From IMG/VR virus record IMGVR_UViG_3300046170_000391: a DNA stretch of 64,000 nucleotides, one strand, 5' to 3'. This DNA comes from a virus. Within the stretch, counting starts at the first letter, position 1, and each line of letters begins with the position of its first letter. Both the position numbers and the translations under genes were made by a program. Under the pieces are notes generated by a model. It searched no databases. It was given only the letters and a program-made list of their open reading frames with translations, and was not told where the DNA came from. Positions 13,833-22,128 of the stretch are shown here, piece after piece.

Positions 13833-14831
13833 ATGCAAGGACAGAGAACAGATATAGACCAATCAAATAAAGCTTTTTTACAAAGGATAAAAAATAAATG
13901 TATACTCAATGAAAATAGTTGTTGGATATGGCAAGGGACTTGTAACCAACGTGGTAGACCTATGGTATCTTGGAAAGGTATGCAAGGCTTAGTATACAGA
14001 TACACATATCTTGCTAAACACGGTAAACCTATTAAAAAAGGACTTTATGCGTGCCACTCTTGTGACGAGAAGCTGTGTTGTAATCCAGATCATATATTTG
14101 AAGGAACTAATAGAGATAATCAAATAGACTTTATGATAAAGAATGAGGGAATTATACATAATGGTTTTAATACCTATGGAGATAAGTACTGGGATGGAAG
14201 ACCAAAGATAGAATTAAAATTAATGATACCTTCAAATCTATCGGATGAAGAACGCTTTAAATGGTATAGGGATAAATATTGTCATCATGACGAAAATGGT
14301 TGTTGGATCTGGTTAAGAGAAGTTGGAGAAGACGGTTATGGTCGACTTAAGTATAGATCAAAGAAACATCAATCTCATAGAGTGATGTGGATGTTAGCTA
14401 ATGATAAAACTCCAGAAGACTTAGAACAGCTTAAAAAAGACAACCTGGTAGTAGGGCATGTATGCCCAGTAGAAGGAGCGCCTAACAAAGCTTGTTGTAA
14501 TCCTGACCATTTAGAAATCAGAACTCGATCACAAAATGGATTAGATACAAGAAGCTACTCAAAGCAAAGAAAGGAAGAACTGTACACAGACGAACAACTT
14601 TACGAGTGGCTTCACATTTATGAATTTGTAATAAATGAGTTGGGAGAAAATCATAAACTACTTAAATCGGCTAATGGAGGTAAGAATTACAAATTAATAG
14701 CAGATGGATTAATAGATTTAGGACTCGTTAATGAAAATATACGCTGTCAGTATCTAAAAGATTTATTAAGAGGTAAAAGTGCAAAACATATTCATAATGA
14801 GTTTTTTGATTGGACTCCATTATGGAAGTGA
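13833..14831 (+). CDS. Homing endonuclease with two HNH / zinc-loop domains
   Basis: Twice CWIW...(H/Y)R...H.C...CCNPDH....T..N. Confidence 0.85.
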   Translation: MQGQRTDIDQSNKAFLQRIKNKCILNENSCWIWQGTCNQRGRPMVSWKGMQGLVYRYTYLAKHGKPIKKGLYACHSCDEKLCCNPDHIFEGTNRDNQIDFMIKNEGIIHNGFNTYGDKYWDGRPKIELKLMIPSNLSDEERFKWYRDKYCHHDENGCWIWLREVGEDGYGRLKYRSKKHQSHRVMWMLANDKTPEDLEQLKKDNLVVGHVCPVEGAPNKACCNPDHLEIRTRSQNGLDTRSYSKQRKEELYTDEQLYEWLHIYEFVINELGENHKLLKSANGGKNYKLIADGLIDLGLVNENIRCQYLKDLLRGKSAKHIHNEFFDWTPLWK

Positions 14832-14938: not shown

Positions 14939-15075
14939 CCCCTAGCTAACCCCTAGCTAACCCCTTGAAAACAAAGGAAAATAAAAATGACAACCCATTG
15001 AAAACATTGGAAACTATTTTGCGTCTTGCCCTTGACTTTAACCCCTTGGATGCTTATATTATATATATAAAGTTA
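14939..15075 (+). promoter_or_regulatory. Spacer module 1: CCCTAGCTAAC tandem, two IHF-type sites, pre-early promoter
   Basis: TAACCCCTTGAAA 14958, CAACCCATTGAAA 14991, CCCTTGAC..ATGCTTATAT. Confidence 0.65.
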
Positions 15076-15091
15076 ATAAGGAGATTCAAAA

Positions 15092-15322
15092 ATGTTTATC
15101 AACTATCGCTTAAAAGCTAAACGTCAAATGGCAATCTTTGCTACTCTCGGCTTCGCTGGCTTCGCTCTTATCGTGATGTCTGGCTTGGCTATGGCTACAA
15201 CCCCTCACCAGGACTTTGCTTTTTGGGCAATGATGGGCGTTGGCATGGTTGGGTTCTTCACTCTGTTCTGGTCAATCCTTGGTTTTATCTTTGGTTTGAT
15301 CGACTACAAATCTTTATCATAG
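15092..15322 (+). CDS. Small two-TM membrane protein
   Basis: AAGGAG RBS; hydrophobic; followed by further mini-ORFs to about 15660. Confidence 0.65.
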   Translation: MFINYRLKAKRQMAIFATLGFAGFALIVMSGLAMATTPHQDFAFWAMMGVGMVGFFTLFWSILGFIFGLIDYKSLS

Positions 15323-15664
15323 GAGTTACCATGATTGAAATTTTCATAGCACTTGAAATTGGTTATATCATCTATCTAATGGCTCAATAGGAGGCGTAAT
15401 GTTCCATTATAAAGAAATTAAAGAAGCAATCGTCGAACACAAAATCGGCTCGGCTATTGTAGGTTCCACTACAACTTATCTGATTTGGTTTGCTGGATCA
15501 GTTTTAATGGGGGCATTTTAATGGATTTTGATCTAGACCAAATAGAAAAAGAAATGGACAAGATGACAAAAGAAATGTCATTAGAAGAAATCGCGGCAAT
15601 GGAAAAAGAAATTGTCGAGGGCTTCGGCCAATCATTCGAGGATATATTCGGGGCTGACTAGCCC

Positions 15665-15890
15665 CGATTTTCTTATATAATACAAACACTTACGGCAATT
15701 GGCGCCGGCCCTACAAAAAACTCAATGATTACAATGCCTTAGCTACCCCAAGGCATACCCGGCGATTTGCCTCTAAGTCATTGATTTTATTAGATAATAA
15801 AAATGATAACTCATTGATTTCATTGGAAACTATTTTCACCTTACCCCTTGATTTTTACCCTTACAATGCTTATATATAATATATAGAAAG
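15665..15890 (+). promoter_or_regulatory. Spacer module 2: four IHF-type sites, GGCGCCGGCC, promoter
   Basis: Exact WATCAA-N4-TTR (reverse) at 15774 and 15807; near matches at 15680 and 15729. Confidence 0.7.
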
Positions 15891-15911
15891 AAACATTAAA
15901 GGAATAAATAA

Positions 15912-16382
15912 ATGACTATCAAAAATATCACAATCTTTGACCTAGACGGAACCATTATCGATAGCTCGCATCGCCAAGCTACACTTCCAGATGGCACGTT
16001 AAATCTGCCAGCGTGGATTGAAAATTCCACAGCTGAAAAGATTTTTGGTGATACTGTTTTACCATTAGCTACACAGGTTCGTCGTCGTCAAAAGGCTGGC
16101 GATTATGTTATGGTTTGCACAGCTCGCAATATGAGCGATGCAGATTTTGAATTTCTGCAAGATGTCGGCATTTGCCCTCACAAGATTATCAGTCGTCCAG
16201 ATGGCAATCAAACGCCAGATGGTGAGTTAAAAGCGAAACAACTTAAAAGCTTTTTATCTCTTAAACAGTTTCAAAAAGCCTCAAAGGTTATGTTTGATGA
16301 TGCGGCTTCGGTTCGCACTGCACTTCGCAAGATTGGAATTGCAGTTATTCATCCAGAAAAAATCGAAAAAAAAGTTGCATGA
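15912..16382 (+). CDS. HAD-family phosphatase, paralogue 1
   Basis: IFDLDGT, CTAR, K, FDD motifs. Confidence 0.85.
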   Translation: MTIKNITIFDLDGTIIDSSHRQATLPDGTLNLPAWIENSTAEKIFGDTVLPLATQVRRRQKAGDYVMVCTARNMSDADFEFLQDVGICPHKIISRPDGNQTPDGELKAKQLKSFLSLKQFQKASKVMFDDAASVRTALRKIGIAVIHPEKIEKKVA

Positions 16383-16444
16383 CCCCTTGACATTTGGGGT
16401 TGCAATGCTTATATATAAGGTATAGGAAACGAAAGGTTGAAATT

Positions 16445-16645
16445 ATGTTTGGATGGATTGGATCATTTTTAGTTATCGCTCAGATGATGGCTTTGACAGT
16501 CGGGCTACCAACACACACTGCAATCATGGTTGGATTTGCTGGGGCTTGTTGTTGGATTGTCCACGCTATTCGGCGTGATGACAAGCCATTGCTTTTTGTT
16601 AATACAGCAGTTTTAATGACTGCACTTGTGGGGTTGATGCCATGA
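16445..16645 (+). CDS. Small membrane protein
   Basis: MFGWIGSFLV... after a promoter and AAAGG RBS. Confidence 0.55.
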   Translation: MFGWIGSFLVIAQMMALTVGLPTHTAIMVGFAGACCWIVHAIRRDDKPLLFVNTAVLMTALVGLMP

Positions 16646-16754
16646 AATATAATATCAAAAAAATTATGGTTGGATTATATCTGGCCTATTCAGTCGCAAC
16701 AGATACAATCATCTGGGGTGGCGCGCTTTATCTCTTAATCAATGGGGGTTTCTA

Positions 16755-17375
16755 ATGTCTGAAAGATTGCAAAATTTTATCAAGTTAAATGAACTCGCTG
16801 AAAATATCTTTGACACTGGCCGCCGTGTTGCGGTTGTGTTAGAGGGGCGCGATGGTGCGGGTAAATCTGGCACTGTTCGAGAAATCACCCGCTATATGCC
16901 ACCATACGCCTACCGCGTCCAACCGTCATTTATGCCATCAAAACGCATGATGAAATCTTGGTTGCCCGAATGGAAGAAACTTTTGCCTCAAAAAGGGCAG
17001 ATGGTTATTTATGATCGCTCTTGGTATTCTCGCGCATTGCTACAGCCTGTTATGGGATGGTGTTCAGATCGTCAATACAAAAATTTTATGCGCGACGTGA
17101 CTGACTGGGAACATGAACAGCAATTTGAGGTTGTCAAGGTTTGGCTTTCGGTTAACGAAAAAAAGCAACGTCAATTATTATCTCGCCGTGTTGATGATCC
17201 GCTTCGCTATTGGAAATACAGCCCGAATGATCCAAAATCGCTAGACGCATTTGACGCGATTACTCAAAAGAAAAATGCAATGTTTGAACTGAATTTTGAT
17301 TGGAACGTGATTGACATGGAAAGCAGGGATCATGGACGCAATCGGGTTATTGAAAATATTATCTCACAACTTTAA
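16755..17375 (+). CDS. ppk2: Polyphosphate kinase 2
   Basis: VVLEGRDGAGKSG Walker A, YDRSWYSR Walker B, K.WLSV, R..DPLRYWKYS. Confidence 0.92.
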   Translation: MSERLQNFIKLNELAENIFDTGRRVAVVLEGRDGAGKSGTVREITRYMPPYAYRVQPSFMPSKRMMKSWLPEWKKLLPQKGQMVIYDRSWYSRALLQPVMGWCSDRQYKNFMRDVTDWEHEQQFEVVKVWLSVNEKKQRQLLSRRVDDPLRYWKYSPNDPKSLDAFDAITQKKNAMFELNFDWNVIDMESRDHGRNRVIENIISQL

Positions 17376-17404
17376 TAAAAAAGGGGCGTAAGCCTCTTTT
17401 TTTA
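17376..17404. terminator. Bidirectional intrinsic terminator
   Basis: aaaaaaggggc-gtaa-gcctctttttt. Confidence 0.7.
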
Positions 17405-17409
17405 TTGAC

Positions 17410-17610
17410 AAAATCCAAGGGCGCGCCGGTTGGACGGGAAAACCTAATGAAATCAATCACTTAGCACTACCAAGACCTACCGGCGGCCGACTCGTAAGTC
17501 ATTGTTTTTAAAGGAAAATAAAAATGATAACCCACTGAAAACAAACAAAACTATTTTCACTTTGCCCCTTGATTTTTAGGGTTAGAATGCTTATATATAA
17601 AGGGTAACAG
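17410..17610 (+). promoter_or_regulatory. Spacer module 3: GGCGCGCC, IHF-type sites, promoter
   Basis: AATCAATCACTTA 17451; TAAGTCATTGTTT 17495; TAACCCACTGAAA 17528; CCCCTTGA..ATGCTTATAT. Confidence 0.7.
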
Positions 17611-17626
17611 AAAAAAGGGTTTACAA

Positions 17627-18292
17627 ATGACTATTCAAAAAAATGCTTATGTTGTCATGGATACAGAAACCAGCTTTCGCAATGGTTTGGTTTTCGATTT
17701 TGGTTGGACGACTATCGACAAGCGTGGTAATGTTCTCGGCTCGGCTGACCTCAATTTCCTTGACGTTATCTGCAAGGAAAAGCCTTACTATATCCACAAG
17801 ATTGCAGGCTATGCCAGACGCCAACGCAAAGCAATCCACAAGGTGACGACTTTTGCGGTTGGTCAACGCTTGTTCAATCTGCACATTCAACATCTCAAGG
17901 CGGCTGGTTATCGCGTTATTCTTTGCGCTTATAATGCTGGTTTTGATTGCCGCGTTTTGGGTGGCACATCTCGCGCTTTTGGTTGTGGCAAATTTTTGAG
18001 ACACTCGGTTGAGTTGCTAGACATTTGGGGTAATTGGGCGTTATCTGCTCCAAAATGTTACACAGCCCCAGCGACAGCAAGCGGCAAATTTTTGTCCACC
18101 ACTGCCCAGAATGTTTATCGCTTTGAAAGCCAACAGCCAGATTTTATCGAGGCGCATACCGCATATGAGGATACCACTATCGAGGCAGAAATTTTGCTCA
18201 AGATTTTGAGGCGTAAAAAGAGGCTGAAGGTTGTCAAAACCCCACGCGAATTTGATGCTCAGATTTGGGAAAAATTTCCAGTTGCGGCTTAA
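17627..18292 (+). CDS. DEDDh 3'-5' exonuclease
   Basis: DTET, AYNAGFD, HTAYED motifs. Confidence 0.85.
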   Translation: MTIQKNAYVVMDTETSFRNGLVFDFGWTTIDKRGNVLGSADLNFLDVICKEKPYYIHKIAGYARRQRKAIHKVTTFAVGQRLFNLHIQHLKAAGYRVILCAYNAGFDCRVLGGTSRAFGCGKFLRHSVELLDIWGNWALSAPKCYTAPATASGKFLSTTAQNVYRFESQQPDFIEAHTAYEDTTIEAEILLKILRRKKRLKVVKTPREFDAQIWEKFPVAA

Positions 18293-18380
18293 TTACGCAA
18301 AATAATTTCACTCTGACCCCTTGAAAAAAGGGGTTGGAATGCTTATATATAATATATAGAAACAAACAAAGAGGTTAAAA

Positions 18381-18854
18381 ATGACTATTAAAAATATTAC
18401 AATATTCGATCTTGATGGCACTGTGATCGACTCTAGCCATAGACAAGCGACTAAGCCAGATGGCACACTTGATCTTGCCAAATGGTTTGAAAATGCTACT
18501 CCAGAAAAAATCTTTCAAGACAAGGTTTTGCCACTGGCTCAACAAATGAGACGCAGGTCAAAGGCTGGTGATTATACCATGATTTGCACAGCTAGAACAC
18601 TAAGCCAAGCTGATCTTGAATTTTTTCATCAAGAAGGTTTATTGGTTGATAAAATTATCTCAAGAAAACAAGGAGATATGACTCCTGATGGTGAGTTAAA
18701 AGCTAAACAGCTTCGTTCGTTCTTTTCTCTTAAACAATTCAAAGACTTAAACAAGGTGATGTTTGATGATGCTCCAAGCGTCCGTAAGTCACTGAGAAAG
18801 CTAGGAATTTCAGTAATCAACCCTAACAAAATAAATCAGCGACTAGCTGGTTAG
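18381..18854 (+). CDS. HAD-family phosphatase, paralogue 2
   Basis: Very similar to 15912-16382 along the whole length. Confidence 0.85.
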   Translation: MTIKNITIFDLDGTVIDSSHRQATKPDGTLDLAKWFENATPEKIFQDKVLPLAQQMRRRSKAGDYTMICTARTLSQADLEFFHQEGLLVDKIISRKQGDMTPDGELKAKQLRSFFSLKQFKDLNKVMFDDAPSVRKSLRKLGISVINPNKINQRLAG

Positions 18855-18969
18855 AAAGGCATATAATGAAAAATTTTCGTATCTTCTTAGAAATTATCCG
18901 CACTGTGACCCCTGTTGCAATTCTCGCTTTACAGGTTGTGATATTAAATGGCCTATAAAGGCCATATTG

Positions 18970-19175
18970 GGTAGCTTAACCCGCTGAAAACAAAGGGAAA
19001 ATCAGACTGCGGCCGGCGGCCGGCGATTTTCTCAATGATTACAACAACTTACAGGCGAAAATAATTTGAAAAAAAAATGCTAACCCATTGATTTTAAAGG
19101 AAAAGAAAATGCATTTTTTTTGCATCTACCCCTTGAAATTTGACCCTAGAATGACTATATATAATAGGTAACAAG
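18970..19175 (+). promoter_or_regulatory. Spacer module 4: GCGGCCGGCGGCCGGCG, IHF-type sites, promoter
   Basis: Sites at 18977, 19039, 19081 (exact). Confidence 0.7.
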
Positions 19176-19204
19176 GAAAACCACTTTCAGAAAAGGACGA
19201 AAAA

Positions 19205-19504
19205 ATGAAAGCTCAAAACTACACTCCAGAACTCACTGCCTCAATCATCGCTGACTATCAGGCTGGCGTTGACGTTGCCGAAATCGCAGCATCTATCGAA
19301 AAGTCAATTCGCTCTGTTCGCTCAAAATTGGTACGCGAGGGCGTTTATATTGCCCAGCCAAAAGTTGCGGCTCGCAAATCTGATGAGCCAACCAAAAAAG
19401 AATTGCTGATCGAATTGGAATCAGTTGCCCCATTTTCGGTCAATGGATTCATGGGTGCGACAAAACCCGCGATTATGGATTTGATCGCTCACTTCAAATC
19501 CTAA
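19205..19504 (+). CDS. T5 A2-like DNA-binding protein, copy 1
   Basis: NYT.E...SIRSVRSKLVREGVY...KKELL...F.GATK; SVRSKL motif recalled from T5 A2. Confidence 0.7.
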   Translation: MKAQNYTPELTASIIADYQAGVDVAEIAASIEKSIRSVRSKLVREGVYIAQPKVAARKSDEPTKKELLIELESVAPFSVNGFMGATKPAIMDLIAHFKS

Positions 19505-19573
19505 AATAAATTGTGGCTGACCCCTTGACATTTGGGGTCAGTCACCCCATATATACTATAGGAGGATTTTATT

Positions 19574-19756
19574 ATGACTGTTAAAAAAATTTGGAAAACT
19601 GAGGGTCAAGAGGGTTGCGACGATTGCCAGTGGCTAGCAAACGAGACAGATGGCGAATGGCTGATCTGTGACGAATGCGAATGGGTGTTGCATGGCGAAG
19701 ATGACGGCCAGCCAGACTGGGCGCAAGAATGGCATGACTTTGACCCCGAATGTTAG
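19574..19756 (+). CDS. Small acidic Zn-ribbon-like protein
   Basis: CDDC...CDEC; C-terminal DGQPDWAQEWHDFDPEC; AGGAGG RBS. Confidence 0.6.
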   Translation: MTVKKIWKTEGQEGCDDCQWLANETDGEWLICDECEWVLHGEDDGQPDWAQEWHDFDPEC

Positions 19757-20740
19757 GCCTCGCAATTTATTGGCACGACAGGTTCGCGGGATGCAACCAC
19801 GGGTCAAACCATCGAAAAAGATTTATCGGAGGAAACCGAAAAATGAAAAAGCGCGAACTGATTAAACGCATTAGTTGTTACACCACTGTTTCGCCAATTA
19901 TGGCAATTCGGTTGTGCTGTTGGTCTGAGGCTAGATTGCAGCGCGTTCTTAAAAATATTAAAGCTATCAATGAGGTTTACAATGACACAAACAATAATCA
20001 AATCAAAGCGTTCTTTGGCAACGCTAAATAATAAACGCAACTTTCAGGGTCTAAAGCTAAAAGAAAGGCCGAAAAAGCCAGCTAAAACAAAGAGTTAGAG
20101 GGCGGCGGCCGGTGAATCTTAGGTAAGCTAACATACTGATATCATTGAATAATTAAAAGTGACCGGCGGCCAAACCCCTTTTTGTCAATGAAAACAATAC
20201 ATTGCGTGCTGCAGTTAAACCATGAAAATTCAATAAAAACAACAGGGTAGGCGTGTCAATAGAAAACTTACAGGCCAAAGTTAAGACGGACACCAGGACT
20301 GTTATGTTATAACGTATCATATTGCGTTTTAACGTGTTACAACATTAATACACACTTAGCAAGCATTCCTACCATGCGATATCAAGAGTAAGCGCTATCC
20401 AGCGCCAGTAGTAGTTCGACGATTGTCAAGTAAAAAGTCAATTCGAATGCATCTTTTTGTACGATTGAAAGCAAGTCTAAGTGCGCCAGCGCCAGTGAAA
20501 AGGCGATTGTCAAGTACAAAATCGCACAAACTAGGATAAAATTTTTATCTAAAAGTCATGTCGTTTCTGATTGACACTAGCCCATCATTCTGATAAACTC
20601 TCTTTACAAATTCAGAGAACGACCATTTTTCTGATTGTAGGCGAAAGCCAGAAACATTCACTTTTGACTTGCTTCTTGGCTAAAAATAGCGTATTATCTT
20701 TATATCAAATGAAAACAGAAACCCATAGGAGATATTCATT

Positions 20741-21049
20741 ATGGCTGCAACTATCAAAAACGTAAACTATACCGCCGAACTTACCGCAGCAATCGTTGAG
20801 CAGTACCAGCAGGGTACTGACGTGGACGCAATCGCTGATTCTATCGGTAAAAGCATCCGTTCGGTGCGTTCAAAGCTGGTACGCGAAGGTGTGTACGTAG
20901 CGAAGCCGAAGGTCGCTGCAAAGCGCGATATGGGTCCAACTAAGAAGGAACTTCTTAAGGACTTAGAAGCTACTGGTTTTGAGGTAGCTGGTTTCGAGGG
21001 GGCTACTAAAGAGGCCATCGTCCGCCTCTTGGGACACTTCGCGAACTAA
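20741..21049 (+). CDS. T5 A2-like DNA-binding protein, copy 2
   Basis: Paralogue of 19205; AGGAG RBS; TTGCTT..TATTAT promoter at about 20688-20720. Confidence 0.7.
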   Translation: MAATIKNVNYTAELTAAIVEQYQQGTDVDAIADSIGKSIRSVRSKLVREGVYVAKPKVAAKRDMGPTKKELLKDLEATGFEVAGFEGATKEAIVRLLGHFAN

Positions 21050-21070
21050 GACACTCGTCAGAGTGTTTGG

Positions 21071-21100
21071 AGGGACAGGCTTCGGTCTGTCCCTTTTTTT
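21071..21100 (+). terminator. Intrinsic terminator
   Basis: agggacaggc-ttcg-gtctgtccct followed by a T run. Confidence 0.9.
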
Positions 21101-22128
21101 ATGAACAAAATCAAGCACTTACATCTACATTATGTGCTCAACGCACCAGTACAAGTACGAAGTATAATTTCAATTGCTTGTGCACCGCTGCGCCAGTGCA
21201 AAGTCAACCATAAAGTCACATCGCTTGCTAGCATTAGTGTAAATAAATCAAAAGTCCATAGTCTATTTCCAAAACAACAAGTCATATATTCAAGTCTGGT
21301 CTAAACCCCTACCCACCCTGGTATAATAACACATAAAAACAGCTCTGCGCAAGGCTGCACTGGCTCCCTACGGTCGCCACAGTCCAATAAACAGTAAAAA
21401 TAATGTGTTATATGGTAAAAAATGGTAAAATAGCAAAGAAATAGCTGTTTTTACGTAGTAAAACAGACAAATAAGTGCATTTACGGAGTAAAATAGCTCC
21501 CCAATAAACCAGAAAATGATTGACGAGAGGGTCTGCTTGGCAGCGCTATGCGAACTCCGTTCGCGGGCTGTGCGAGAAGAATTCCGATGTAGGGAGGCAA
21601 TCATATCACTTCGTGATACAACTGTCCCAAGCACACACGCTCCGCGTGGAATCGAAATAGTGAGTATGTTTATGGAATATAGTATAAAGTGAACGAACGA
21701 AGTTCGATAGCTGGTACAGCCTCTATGCTCCCTACGGTCGCTTATGTTATCTATGTACAAAGGCTATATACACGGCTACGCAACGTGGTGTAAAAGCTGT
21801 GTAACATATGTAATAGCTATGTAATCGCTGTTACAAAAAAAAAGACGCTGTGTAATAGCTAAACAGCGGCTTCGTTTGCGTTCTGTATACAAATAATAGC
21901 AGAATATTTGTACATTGTCAACGGGTTGTATTGGGTAATTTTGTGAAATGAGAAGTTTAGAAATGACGAATTAGTTACTCTTTATTCATGTATACATTGT
22001 ACTATAATTGGTATGGATTTCAACAGTTAGGTTCATACTTTTTGTATAGTTGCTAAAGACTGTAGTGTGAAAAATGCTACAAAAATTTCTCTCTGTAGCA
22101 TTGGTAGGATATAATTTGGTTGATTAGA

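Follow-up and report, generated by a model that had tools for sequence, protein, structure and literature searches.

The spacers between small operons of an uncultured phage (IMG/VR record IMGVR_UViG_3300046170_000391) contain repeated DNA modules, each built from short sites that resemble those of integration host factor (IHF). We analyzed a 64,000-nt stretch of this phage DNA (hereafter, the window), in which the sites under study lie at 14.9-21.1 kb, within spacers that add up to 2,255 bp. The large terminase encoded in the window shows 40% identity to the terminases of T5-like phages (Demerecviridae), and the minus strand carries the head, protease and tail genes; the cluster of small operons at 14.9-21.1 kb, on the plus strand, breaks into this minus-strand genome. 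The operons of the cluster start with seven near-identical, consensus-like promoters of the sigma70 type (CCCCTTGA-N-TGCTTATATATAA), of which four are preceded by a module. The modules span 100-200 bp, mostly ahead of a promoter and with two or three sites each, and are laid out, after a terminator, as a forward site A, a G/C-rich linker, a reverse site B, AATAAAAATGA, a reverse site C, GGAAACTATTTTC, and ACCCCTTGA, which includes the -35 element.

A preliminary description of this DNA listed 17 sites of the WATCAA-N4-TTR type in the spacers and stated that four modules end in a promoter. All 17 sites are present, 5 as exact matches, 6 with one mismatch and 6 with two mismatches, and four modules do end in a promoter, of the form CCCCTTGA...TATATA (Table 1). 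Scoring by consensus matching, rather than by a weight matrix, yields 12 exact matches to WATCAANNNNTTR in the whole window compared to 7.35 ± 2.9 expected, that is, no enrichment, but 5 in the spacers compared to 0.20 ± 0.47 (500 dinucleotide shuffles, with a maximum of 4); with at most one mismatch allowed, the spacers contain 13 matches compared to 4.7 ± 2.2 expected. Thus, the outcome that the preliminary description named as a refutation, no enrichment over an AT-matched background, did not occur in the spacers, although the window as a whole is not enriched. When the symbols of the motif were scrambled 1000 times with the gap kept, 7 of the versions reached five spacer matches, 4 of these being near-synonyms of the consensus and 3 matching the TATATA -10 boxes; the consensus ranks in the top ~0.5% of these control motifs. 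The sites represent copies of one ~24-nt unit, TAACCCATTGAwwwCAwwGGAAAA, which is part of a 106-nt repeat (families D2-D4), and, therefore, are not independent events. Matches with two mismatches have no individual meaning: those at 15680, 15729 and 19039 are retained solely because they fit the motif derived from relatives (see below), and those at 17528 and 18977 solely as homologous copies of the repeated unit, whereas the match at 20237 shows neither.

Two protein queries retrieved ~50 related viral contigs (61-97% amino acid identity), which carry the same promoters and modules as the window. In 67 dereplicated upstream regions, taken from the relatives only, CAAn4TTA is the most over-represented word among all 3+3 words with gaps of 0-8, with 153 occurrences compared to 10.8 expected (z 43), so that the core of the IHF consensus is recovered in the relatives without being assumed. 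Of the 15 matches in the 64 kb to the motif derived from the relatives, WWWCAANNNNTTAS, 10 fall within the cluster spacers; the density of this motif in the loci of the relatives is 1.24/kb, and unrelated viral loci have 0.17/kb.

The module upstream of the gene for a 221-aa protein was aligned with MAFFT across 19 relatives, without conditioning on the motif. On the 0-9 scale of our script (9, invariant), the 5' columns of site A are A A (9,9), A (6), T (5) and CAA (9,9,9), followed by a variable N4 (3,4,2,3) and by TTA (9,9,8), G (6) and C (5); the non-coding DNA around and further upstream of the aligned module has diverged beyond alignment. Among 170 unique instances of the core in the relatives, positions -3 to -1 are A/T in more than 90%, with T favored at -1 (64%), the most common triplets 5' of the core being AAT (44), TTT (42) and AAA (27); the A/T-rich flank extends ~8 bases 5' of the core, and the N4 is represented by 52 different tetramers. 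The logos of the type I and type II modules were conditioned on the motif and were not used as evidence for the core triplets. The form of the site in the window and relatives is [A/T-rich flank]-WWW-CAA-N4-TTA-(G/C), and this bipartite conservation, with a W-rich flank, CAA, a free N4 and TTA, fits the IHF-type interpretation originally given to the sites.

The spacing of the sites is similarly constrained. The 33-bp distance described for direct pairs was reproduced for all three pairs; the 42-45 bp described for inverted pairs is correct for the window (45, 44, 42 and 44 bp) but is not conserved, the relatives having mostly 31-33 bp. The distance between B and C is 33 bp in 27 cases, 43 or 44 bp in 11 and 22 bp in one, and the orientation follows a rule, with C and B in the same sense and A in the opposite sense, beyond the G/C-rich linker. 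We measured the site starts from the TTGA of the -35 element in 70 dereplicated regions and found them concentrated at -41 (22 sites), -52 (15), -74 (28) and -84 to -86 (11), and more distally at -95 (8), -105 to -107 (17), -117 (6) and -127 (4). At a period of 10.75-11 bp, the resultant length attains its maximum of 0.58, and, when the 18 distinct occupied positions are considered, the observed phasing value is reached in 7 of 2000 random sets. Within the window itself, the exact reverse site of module 6 (type II) starts 52 bp before TTGA, one helical turn further out than in the type I modules 1, 2 and 4. Every shift in site position amounts to a whole number of helical turns. This favors a promoter-linked constraint on the face of the helix, and the whole-turn jumps between module types are a more robust signal than the inflated counts (see below). 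We conclude that the phased array of modules exists and is conserved; the motif, its conservation pattern, the phasing and the restriction to the spacers are directly observed.

In the relatives, the linkers between the inverted sites have a GC content of 74%, measure 21-23 bp in most cases, and contain many CGGCCG and GGCnGCC words. Seven pure G/C runs of at least 9 nt occur in the 64-kb window, and all but one fall in the cluster spacers.

Table 1. Modules, sites, promoters and genes in and next to the plus-strand cluster
Feature	Coordinates	Strand	Remarks
Exact sites (site starts)	15774, 15807, 17451, 19081, 21109	-, -, +, -, +	
One-mismatch sites (site starts)	14958, 14991, 17495, 20085, 20129, 20192		
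Two-mismatch sites (site starts)	15680, 15729, 17528, 18977, 19039, 20237		
Two-domain HNH endonuclease gene	13833-14831		immediately precedes the cluster
Module 1	14939..15060	+	CCCCTAGCTAA x2, sites B and C, GGAAACTATTTTG block, promoter
Module 1, sites	B 14958-14970; C 14991-15003	-	both minus-strand when read in the IHF sense
Module 1, GGAAACTATTTTG block	15009-15021		
Module 1, promoter	15032-15060		TTGACT-17-TATATT; TTGA at 15032
Module 2	15680..15876	+	follows terminator 15648-15667; TTGA at 15848
Module 2, forward sites	15680-15692; 15729-15741		
Module 2, G/C run	15701-15711		
Module 2, reverse sites	B 15774-15786; C 15807-15819		both exact
Module 2, GGAAACTATTTTC	15825-15837		
HAD phosphatase gene, T5-dmp-like	15912-16382	+	served by the cluster promoters
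Module-less promoter, same family	16387..16415	+	operon-internal; -35 in GACCCC...GGGGT inverted repeat
PPK2 (polyphosphate kinase 2) gene	16755-17375	+	Pfam E 1e-42
Module 4	17419..17597	+	TTGA at 17569; ortholog aligned across 19 relatives
Module 4, G/C runs	17419-17429; 17480-17489		
Module 4, sites	A 17451-17463; B 17495-17507; C 17528-17540		A forward, exact; B and C reverse
Gene for 221-aa phrog_20187 protein	17627-18292	+	
Sister module-less promoters	18321; 19525		positions of TTGA
HAD phosphatase gene, T5-dmp-like	18381-18854	+	served by the cluster promoters
Module 6, type II	18977..19161	+	TTGA at 19133
Module 6, sites	18977-18989; 19039-19051; 19081-19093		reverse unit; forward; reverse, exact
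Module 6, G/C run	19009-19025		
Gene for helix-turn-helix protein	19205-19504	+	faint T5 A2 likeness
Degenerate module	20085..20249	+	without CCCCTTGA promoter
Degenerate module, sites	20085-20097; 20129-20141; 20192-20204; 20237-20249		forward; reverse; forward; weak
Degenerate module, G/C runs	20100-20112; 20163-20171		
Gene for helix-turn-helix protein	20741-21049	+	faint T5 A2 likeness
Lone exact forward site	21109..21121	+	13 bp after terminator 21069-21096, which closes the plus-strand cluster

Several variations on this arrangement were observed. In a third type of module, another conserved element, CCGTTGCAAAWATGTCACAC, takes the place of site C, and after it come an A-rich stretch and a variant -35 element (AGGGGTTGA); this type is present in the relatives L001, L005, L006, L010, L020 and L021, upstream of the gene for the 221-aa protein, and in L046, L047 and L050. 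In all three promoters that lack a module, the -35 element lies inside an inverted repeat, GACCCC-TTGACATTT-GGGGTC or similar (16381-16402, 18315-18336 and 19519-19541), which may function as a weak terminator or attenuator. The -35 regions (ACCCCTTGA) were considered as further copies of the site, and this was rejected given that TAA is not kept at the upstream triplet.

The genes of the cluster, all of which these promoters serve, resemble, in part, the pre-early genes of T5, and the label "pre-early" would apply to the cluster on the strength of this gene content. The HAD phosphatases are homologous to T5 dmp (E 4e-15), and the two helix-turn-helix (HTH) proteins, which are 64% identical to each other, match T5 A2 with E values of 0.006 and 0.022, with a common SVRSKL stretch, and phrog_1725 at 3e-5, a faint likeness. 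No A1-like open reading frame (ORF) was found in the cluster, where the largest ORF encodes 221 aa. Thus, of the T5-type pre-early set (dmp, A1, A2), dmp is clear, A2 faint and A1 not found. The PPK2 gene sits among these early-type genes and is widely kept in the relatives, with identity up to 97%. At the upstream border of the cluster, after the HNH endonuclease gene, CCCCTAGCTAA occurs twice as an 11-bp tandem duplication (14939-14960) that runs into the first unit of module 1. Two further repeats, unrelated to the IHF-type motif, were detected in non-coding DNA: CGATTGTCAAGTA(A/C)AAA occurs twice, ~86 bp apart, in a long non-coding stretch (within 20410-20530), and GCGCCAGTG is a short direct repeat at ~20489 and ~21190 (in the non-coding segments 20410-20530 and 21185-21216). 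No relative of the window was detected at the DNA level among 50,697 GenBank phage records, in either near or distant mode; in protein searches for cultured relatives, the 221-aa protein produced remote matches only, and the 99-aa HTH protein produced none.

We favor the interpretation of the spacers as conserved promoter-upstream modules whose sites would be bound by host IHF, and estimate its probability at about one half. The more general part of this interpretation, namely, that the sites serve a sequence-specific bender acting in register with the promoter, is probably correct. In the ~34-bp IHF site, WATCAA is followed after four bases by TTR, and the 5' half contains an A/T tract (PMC1874591). 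CAA-N4-TTA with its A/T flank matches this anatomy, which supports an IHF-type site, with an imperfect fit. The A/T element of the ~34-bp site may correspond to positions -8 to -1, which are mostly A/T, and to AATAAAAATGA, 10-20 bp from B, the tract being found on either strand; the tract of site C lies further out than that of the H' site of phage lambda. None of the 37 small ORFs of the window encodes a member of the HU/IHF family, so that a host factor is the simpler source of the binding protein. Informal comparison by eye with the consensus sequences of Fis, CRP, CtrA and DnaA found none that fitted.

Under the mechanism that we propose, each module would provide two or three sites for a sequence-specific architectural DNA-bending protein, for which host IHF is the best candidate. 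Sites C and B, in one orientation and 33 bp apart, with the register fixed at -41/-52 and -74/-85/-95 from TTGA, would place their bends on one face of the helix, so that the upstream DNA would be wrapped back onto RNA polymerase. The wrapped DNA would include the A/T block at -58 to -46, which resembles a distal UP subsite (positions from PMC2613000). The near-identical sigma70 promoters located after the terminators would then fire strongly once host proteins see the DNA. Among the functions suggested in the preliminary description, promoter activation is favored by the fixed register with the -35 element, but the activation itself, like the bending and the identity of the binding protein, we infer from the sequence.

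Several observations weigh against the IHF interpretation. The relatives share descent, which inflates the conservation and phasing counts. The full WATCAANNNNTTR consensus, which is that of Escherichia coli, is matched in only 53 of the 170 unique CAAN4TTR instances (31%), with TTT or AAA in place of WAT in ~40% of the instances and TTA prevailing over TTG; for E. coli IHF, the WAT positions matter, and TTG is the more common form. The modules are conserved as wholes, including AATAAAAATGA, GGAAACTATTTTC and the G/C linkers, which IHF does not obviously explain. Furthermore, 33 bp is about one IHF footprint, so that B and C would abut, and two U-turn complexes set edge to edge may be sterically difficult; the phased A/T tracts may mean that intrinsic curvature does part or all of the work; and the T5 terminal repeat contains no exact match to the IHF consensus.

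The deviations from the E. coli consensus at WAT also bear on the foremost alternative, under which the same sites would be bound by another protein, either the A2-like HTH paralogs (two or three) or a nucleoid protein of the marine host. The function in this case could be shut-off or autoregulation of the gene class, or formation of a higher-order complex that uses the G/C linkers. A2 of T5 binds DNA, the cluster to which the sites are confined encodes two HTH paralogs, and the retained G/C linkers and other blocks suggest further partners. However, no phage protein is yet available when the first promoters have to fire, the likeness to A2 is weak, and the asymmetric 3+N4+3 arrangement with an A/T flank is the IHF pattern, unlike a typical operator of an HTH dimer; moreover, the exact and refined matches elsewhere in the window, outside the cluster, are few and scattered. 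We consider binding by such a protein possible, at a clearly lower likelihood than binding by IHF.

Alternatively, no dedicated protein might be involved, the modules being intrinsically curved, A/T-tract-phased DNA with UP-type elements that contact the alpha subunits of RNA polymerase. The AAA/TTT tracts show an 11-bp periodicity with a peak of 0.50 compared to 0.10 in shuffles, and the tract beside TTG switches freely between AAAA and TTTT. GGAAACTATTTTC is located at about -58 to -46, the place of the distal UP subsite. Curvature alone, however, leaves unexplained both why CAA and TTA are invariant when the G/C-rich N4 between them varies and why C and B are strictly oriented in one sense and A in the other, and we regard this explanation as unlikely.

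A more elaborate scenario, and in our view a quite improbable one, is that the modules nucleate a dedicated nucleoprotein structure on the first-entering DNA, formed by IHF-type benders together with a second factor, possibly the A2-like paralogs, on the CCGGCGGCC-like G/C linkers. An A1-less T5-like region would thereby be folded compactly, coupling DNA entry, protection from nucleases and immediate transcription.

The proposal that the arrays serve DNA entry, whether by protecting the ends, as a pull-in ratchet, by signaling an injection stop or by acting as a sink for host IHF, is very doubtful. The gene content is similar to that of the T5 pre-early region in the dmp homolog and the faint A2 likeness, and a module without a promoter (20085-20249) and a lone site (21109) exist. 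Nevertheless, four of the five modules are locked in register with a promoter, this register being the conserved feature, and the cluster contains no large A1-like ORF. As for titration, ~17 sites are few compared to the thousands of dimers per cell of the abundant IHF. Of the suggestions made in the preliminary description, first injection of this DNA, end protection, pulling in of the DNA and titration of IHF are all unsupported. The injection-stop signal (iss) model of T5 does not carry over to the window either, because the T5 repeat has no IHF sites, and the DnaA box TTWTNCACA, with 10 matches in the window, a chance number for its length, has none in the 14.9-21.4 kb segment. In the T5 terminal repeat, the repeats are built on paired DnaA boxes and palindromes, with IHF merely raised as a possibility (Davison, bioRxiv 10.1101/866236). 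The two systems are alike in that blocks of non-coding repeats are conserved among dmp and A2-type genes, and in that the non-coding DNA is better conserved than many genes, but differ in that T5 has DnaA boxes without IHF consensus sites, whereas the cluster lacks DnaA boxes.

We give scant credence to an accidental likeness to IHF sites, with a chance motif hitch-hiking in a duplicated promoter cassette. The membership of the sites in repeat families and the conservation of the modules as wholes would be compatible with such an accident, but the triplets are invariant around a variable N4 in orthologs whose flanking non-coding DNA cannot be aligned, the IHF-compatible word ranks first among all gapped words tested, and the positions shift only by whole helical turns. 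Finally, a hairpin formed by the inverted A and B arms with a G/C core, as an RNA terminator or a DNA cruciform, can be practically dismissed in spite of the inverted arrangement, the G/C-rich center and the T-run after arm B, because the complementarity of the N4 of the arms is at chance (1.30 of 4 compared to 1.46 in shuffled pairings) and the linkers fold no better than shuffles (-5.8 compared to -6.6 kcal/mol). The lack of covariation between the inverted arms points to protein sites rather than hairpins.

If IHF is the ligand, the sites would point to a proteobacterial host. Searching genome contigs with the terminase for a host found nothing, and a scan with the DNA pattern produced mostly chance matches and one true relative, L188 (JAFMNI010000178.1), a 3.3-kb contig with two modules that are 77-87% identical to those of the window. 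This contig was binned in a metagenome-assembled genome of Candidatus Puniceispirillum (SAR116) from Delaware Bay that encodes IhfA and IhfB (himA, 129 bits; hip, 126 bits; NCBIfam cut-off, 120 each). Given that the binning of a 3.3-kb contig is a weak hint, so is the assignment of Candidatus Puniceispirillum as the host of this phage group.

These observations provide a testable, sequence-level model of how a large group of uncultured marine T5-related phages could drive their first genes; the elements of the model are bender sites on a fixed lattice, a G/C linker and promoters that are nearly identical. The whole-turn jumps (from -41 to -52 and from 33 to 44 bp) amount to a natural experiment on whether the face of the helix matters, and the modules could serve as compact strong-promoter parts. 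IHF-assisted early promoters of phages are textbook knowledge and not a new principle; what stands out here is the clean helical lattice, together with G/C linkers of unexplained role.

Compared to the E. coli IHF site (WATCAANNNNTTR in ~34 bp, PMC1874591), the sites described here share the CAA and TTR around a free N4, the A/T-rich 5' flank and the asymmetry. They differ in that WAT is relaxed to WWW (AAT, TTT or AAA), TTA is preferred over TTG, and TTA is followed by G/C. In the RIB/RIP (BIME-1) elements of E. coli, located at the ends of operons, two inverted, G/C-rich REP palindromes flank an IHF site. The modules are similar to these elements in being repeated and extragenic, in combining IHF-type sites with G/C-rich elements, and in their location just after terminators. 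The geometry, however, is reversed, with the G/C core between inverted IHF-type sites, the G/C cores show no selected hairpin, and the modules are tied to a downstream promoter; an identity with RIB/RIP was therefore rejected. The closest functional parallels are the early promoters lambda pL and Mu Pe, which are stimulated by IHF sites located upstream, lambda pL combining such sites with a distant UP element. As in these systems, a strong sigma70 early promoter is found with IHF-type sites ~60-150 bp upstream on a defined helical face and with an A/T block available for the alpha subunits. Unlike them, the window has two or three sites on a ~10.75-bp lattice in front of four promoters, with the 74%-GC linker and the inverted distal site as further components, and belongs to a group in which this arrangement is kept in ~50 uncultured relatives.

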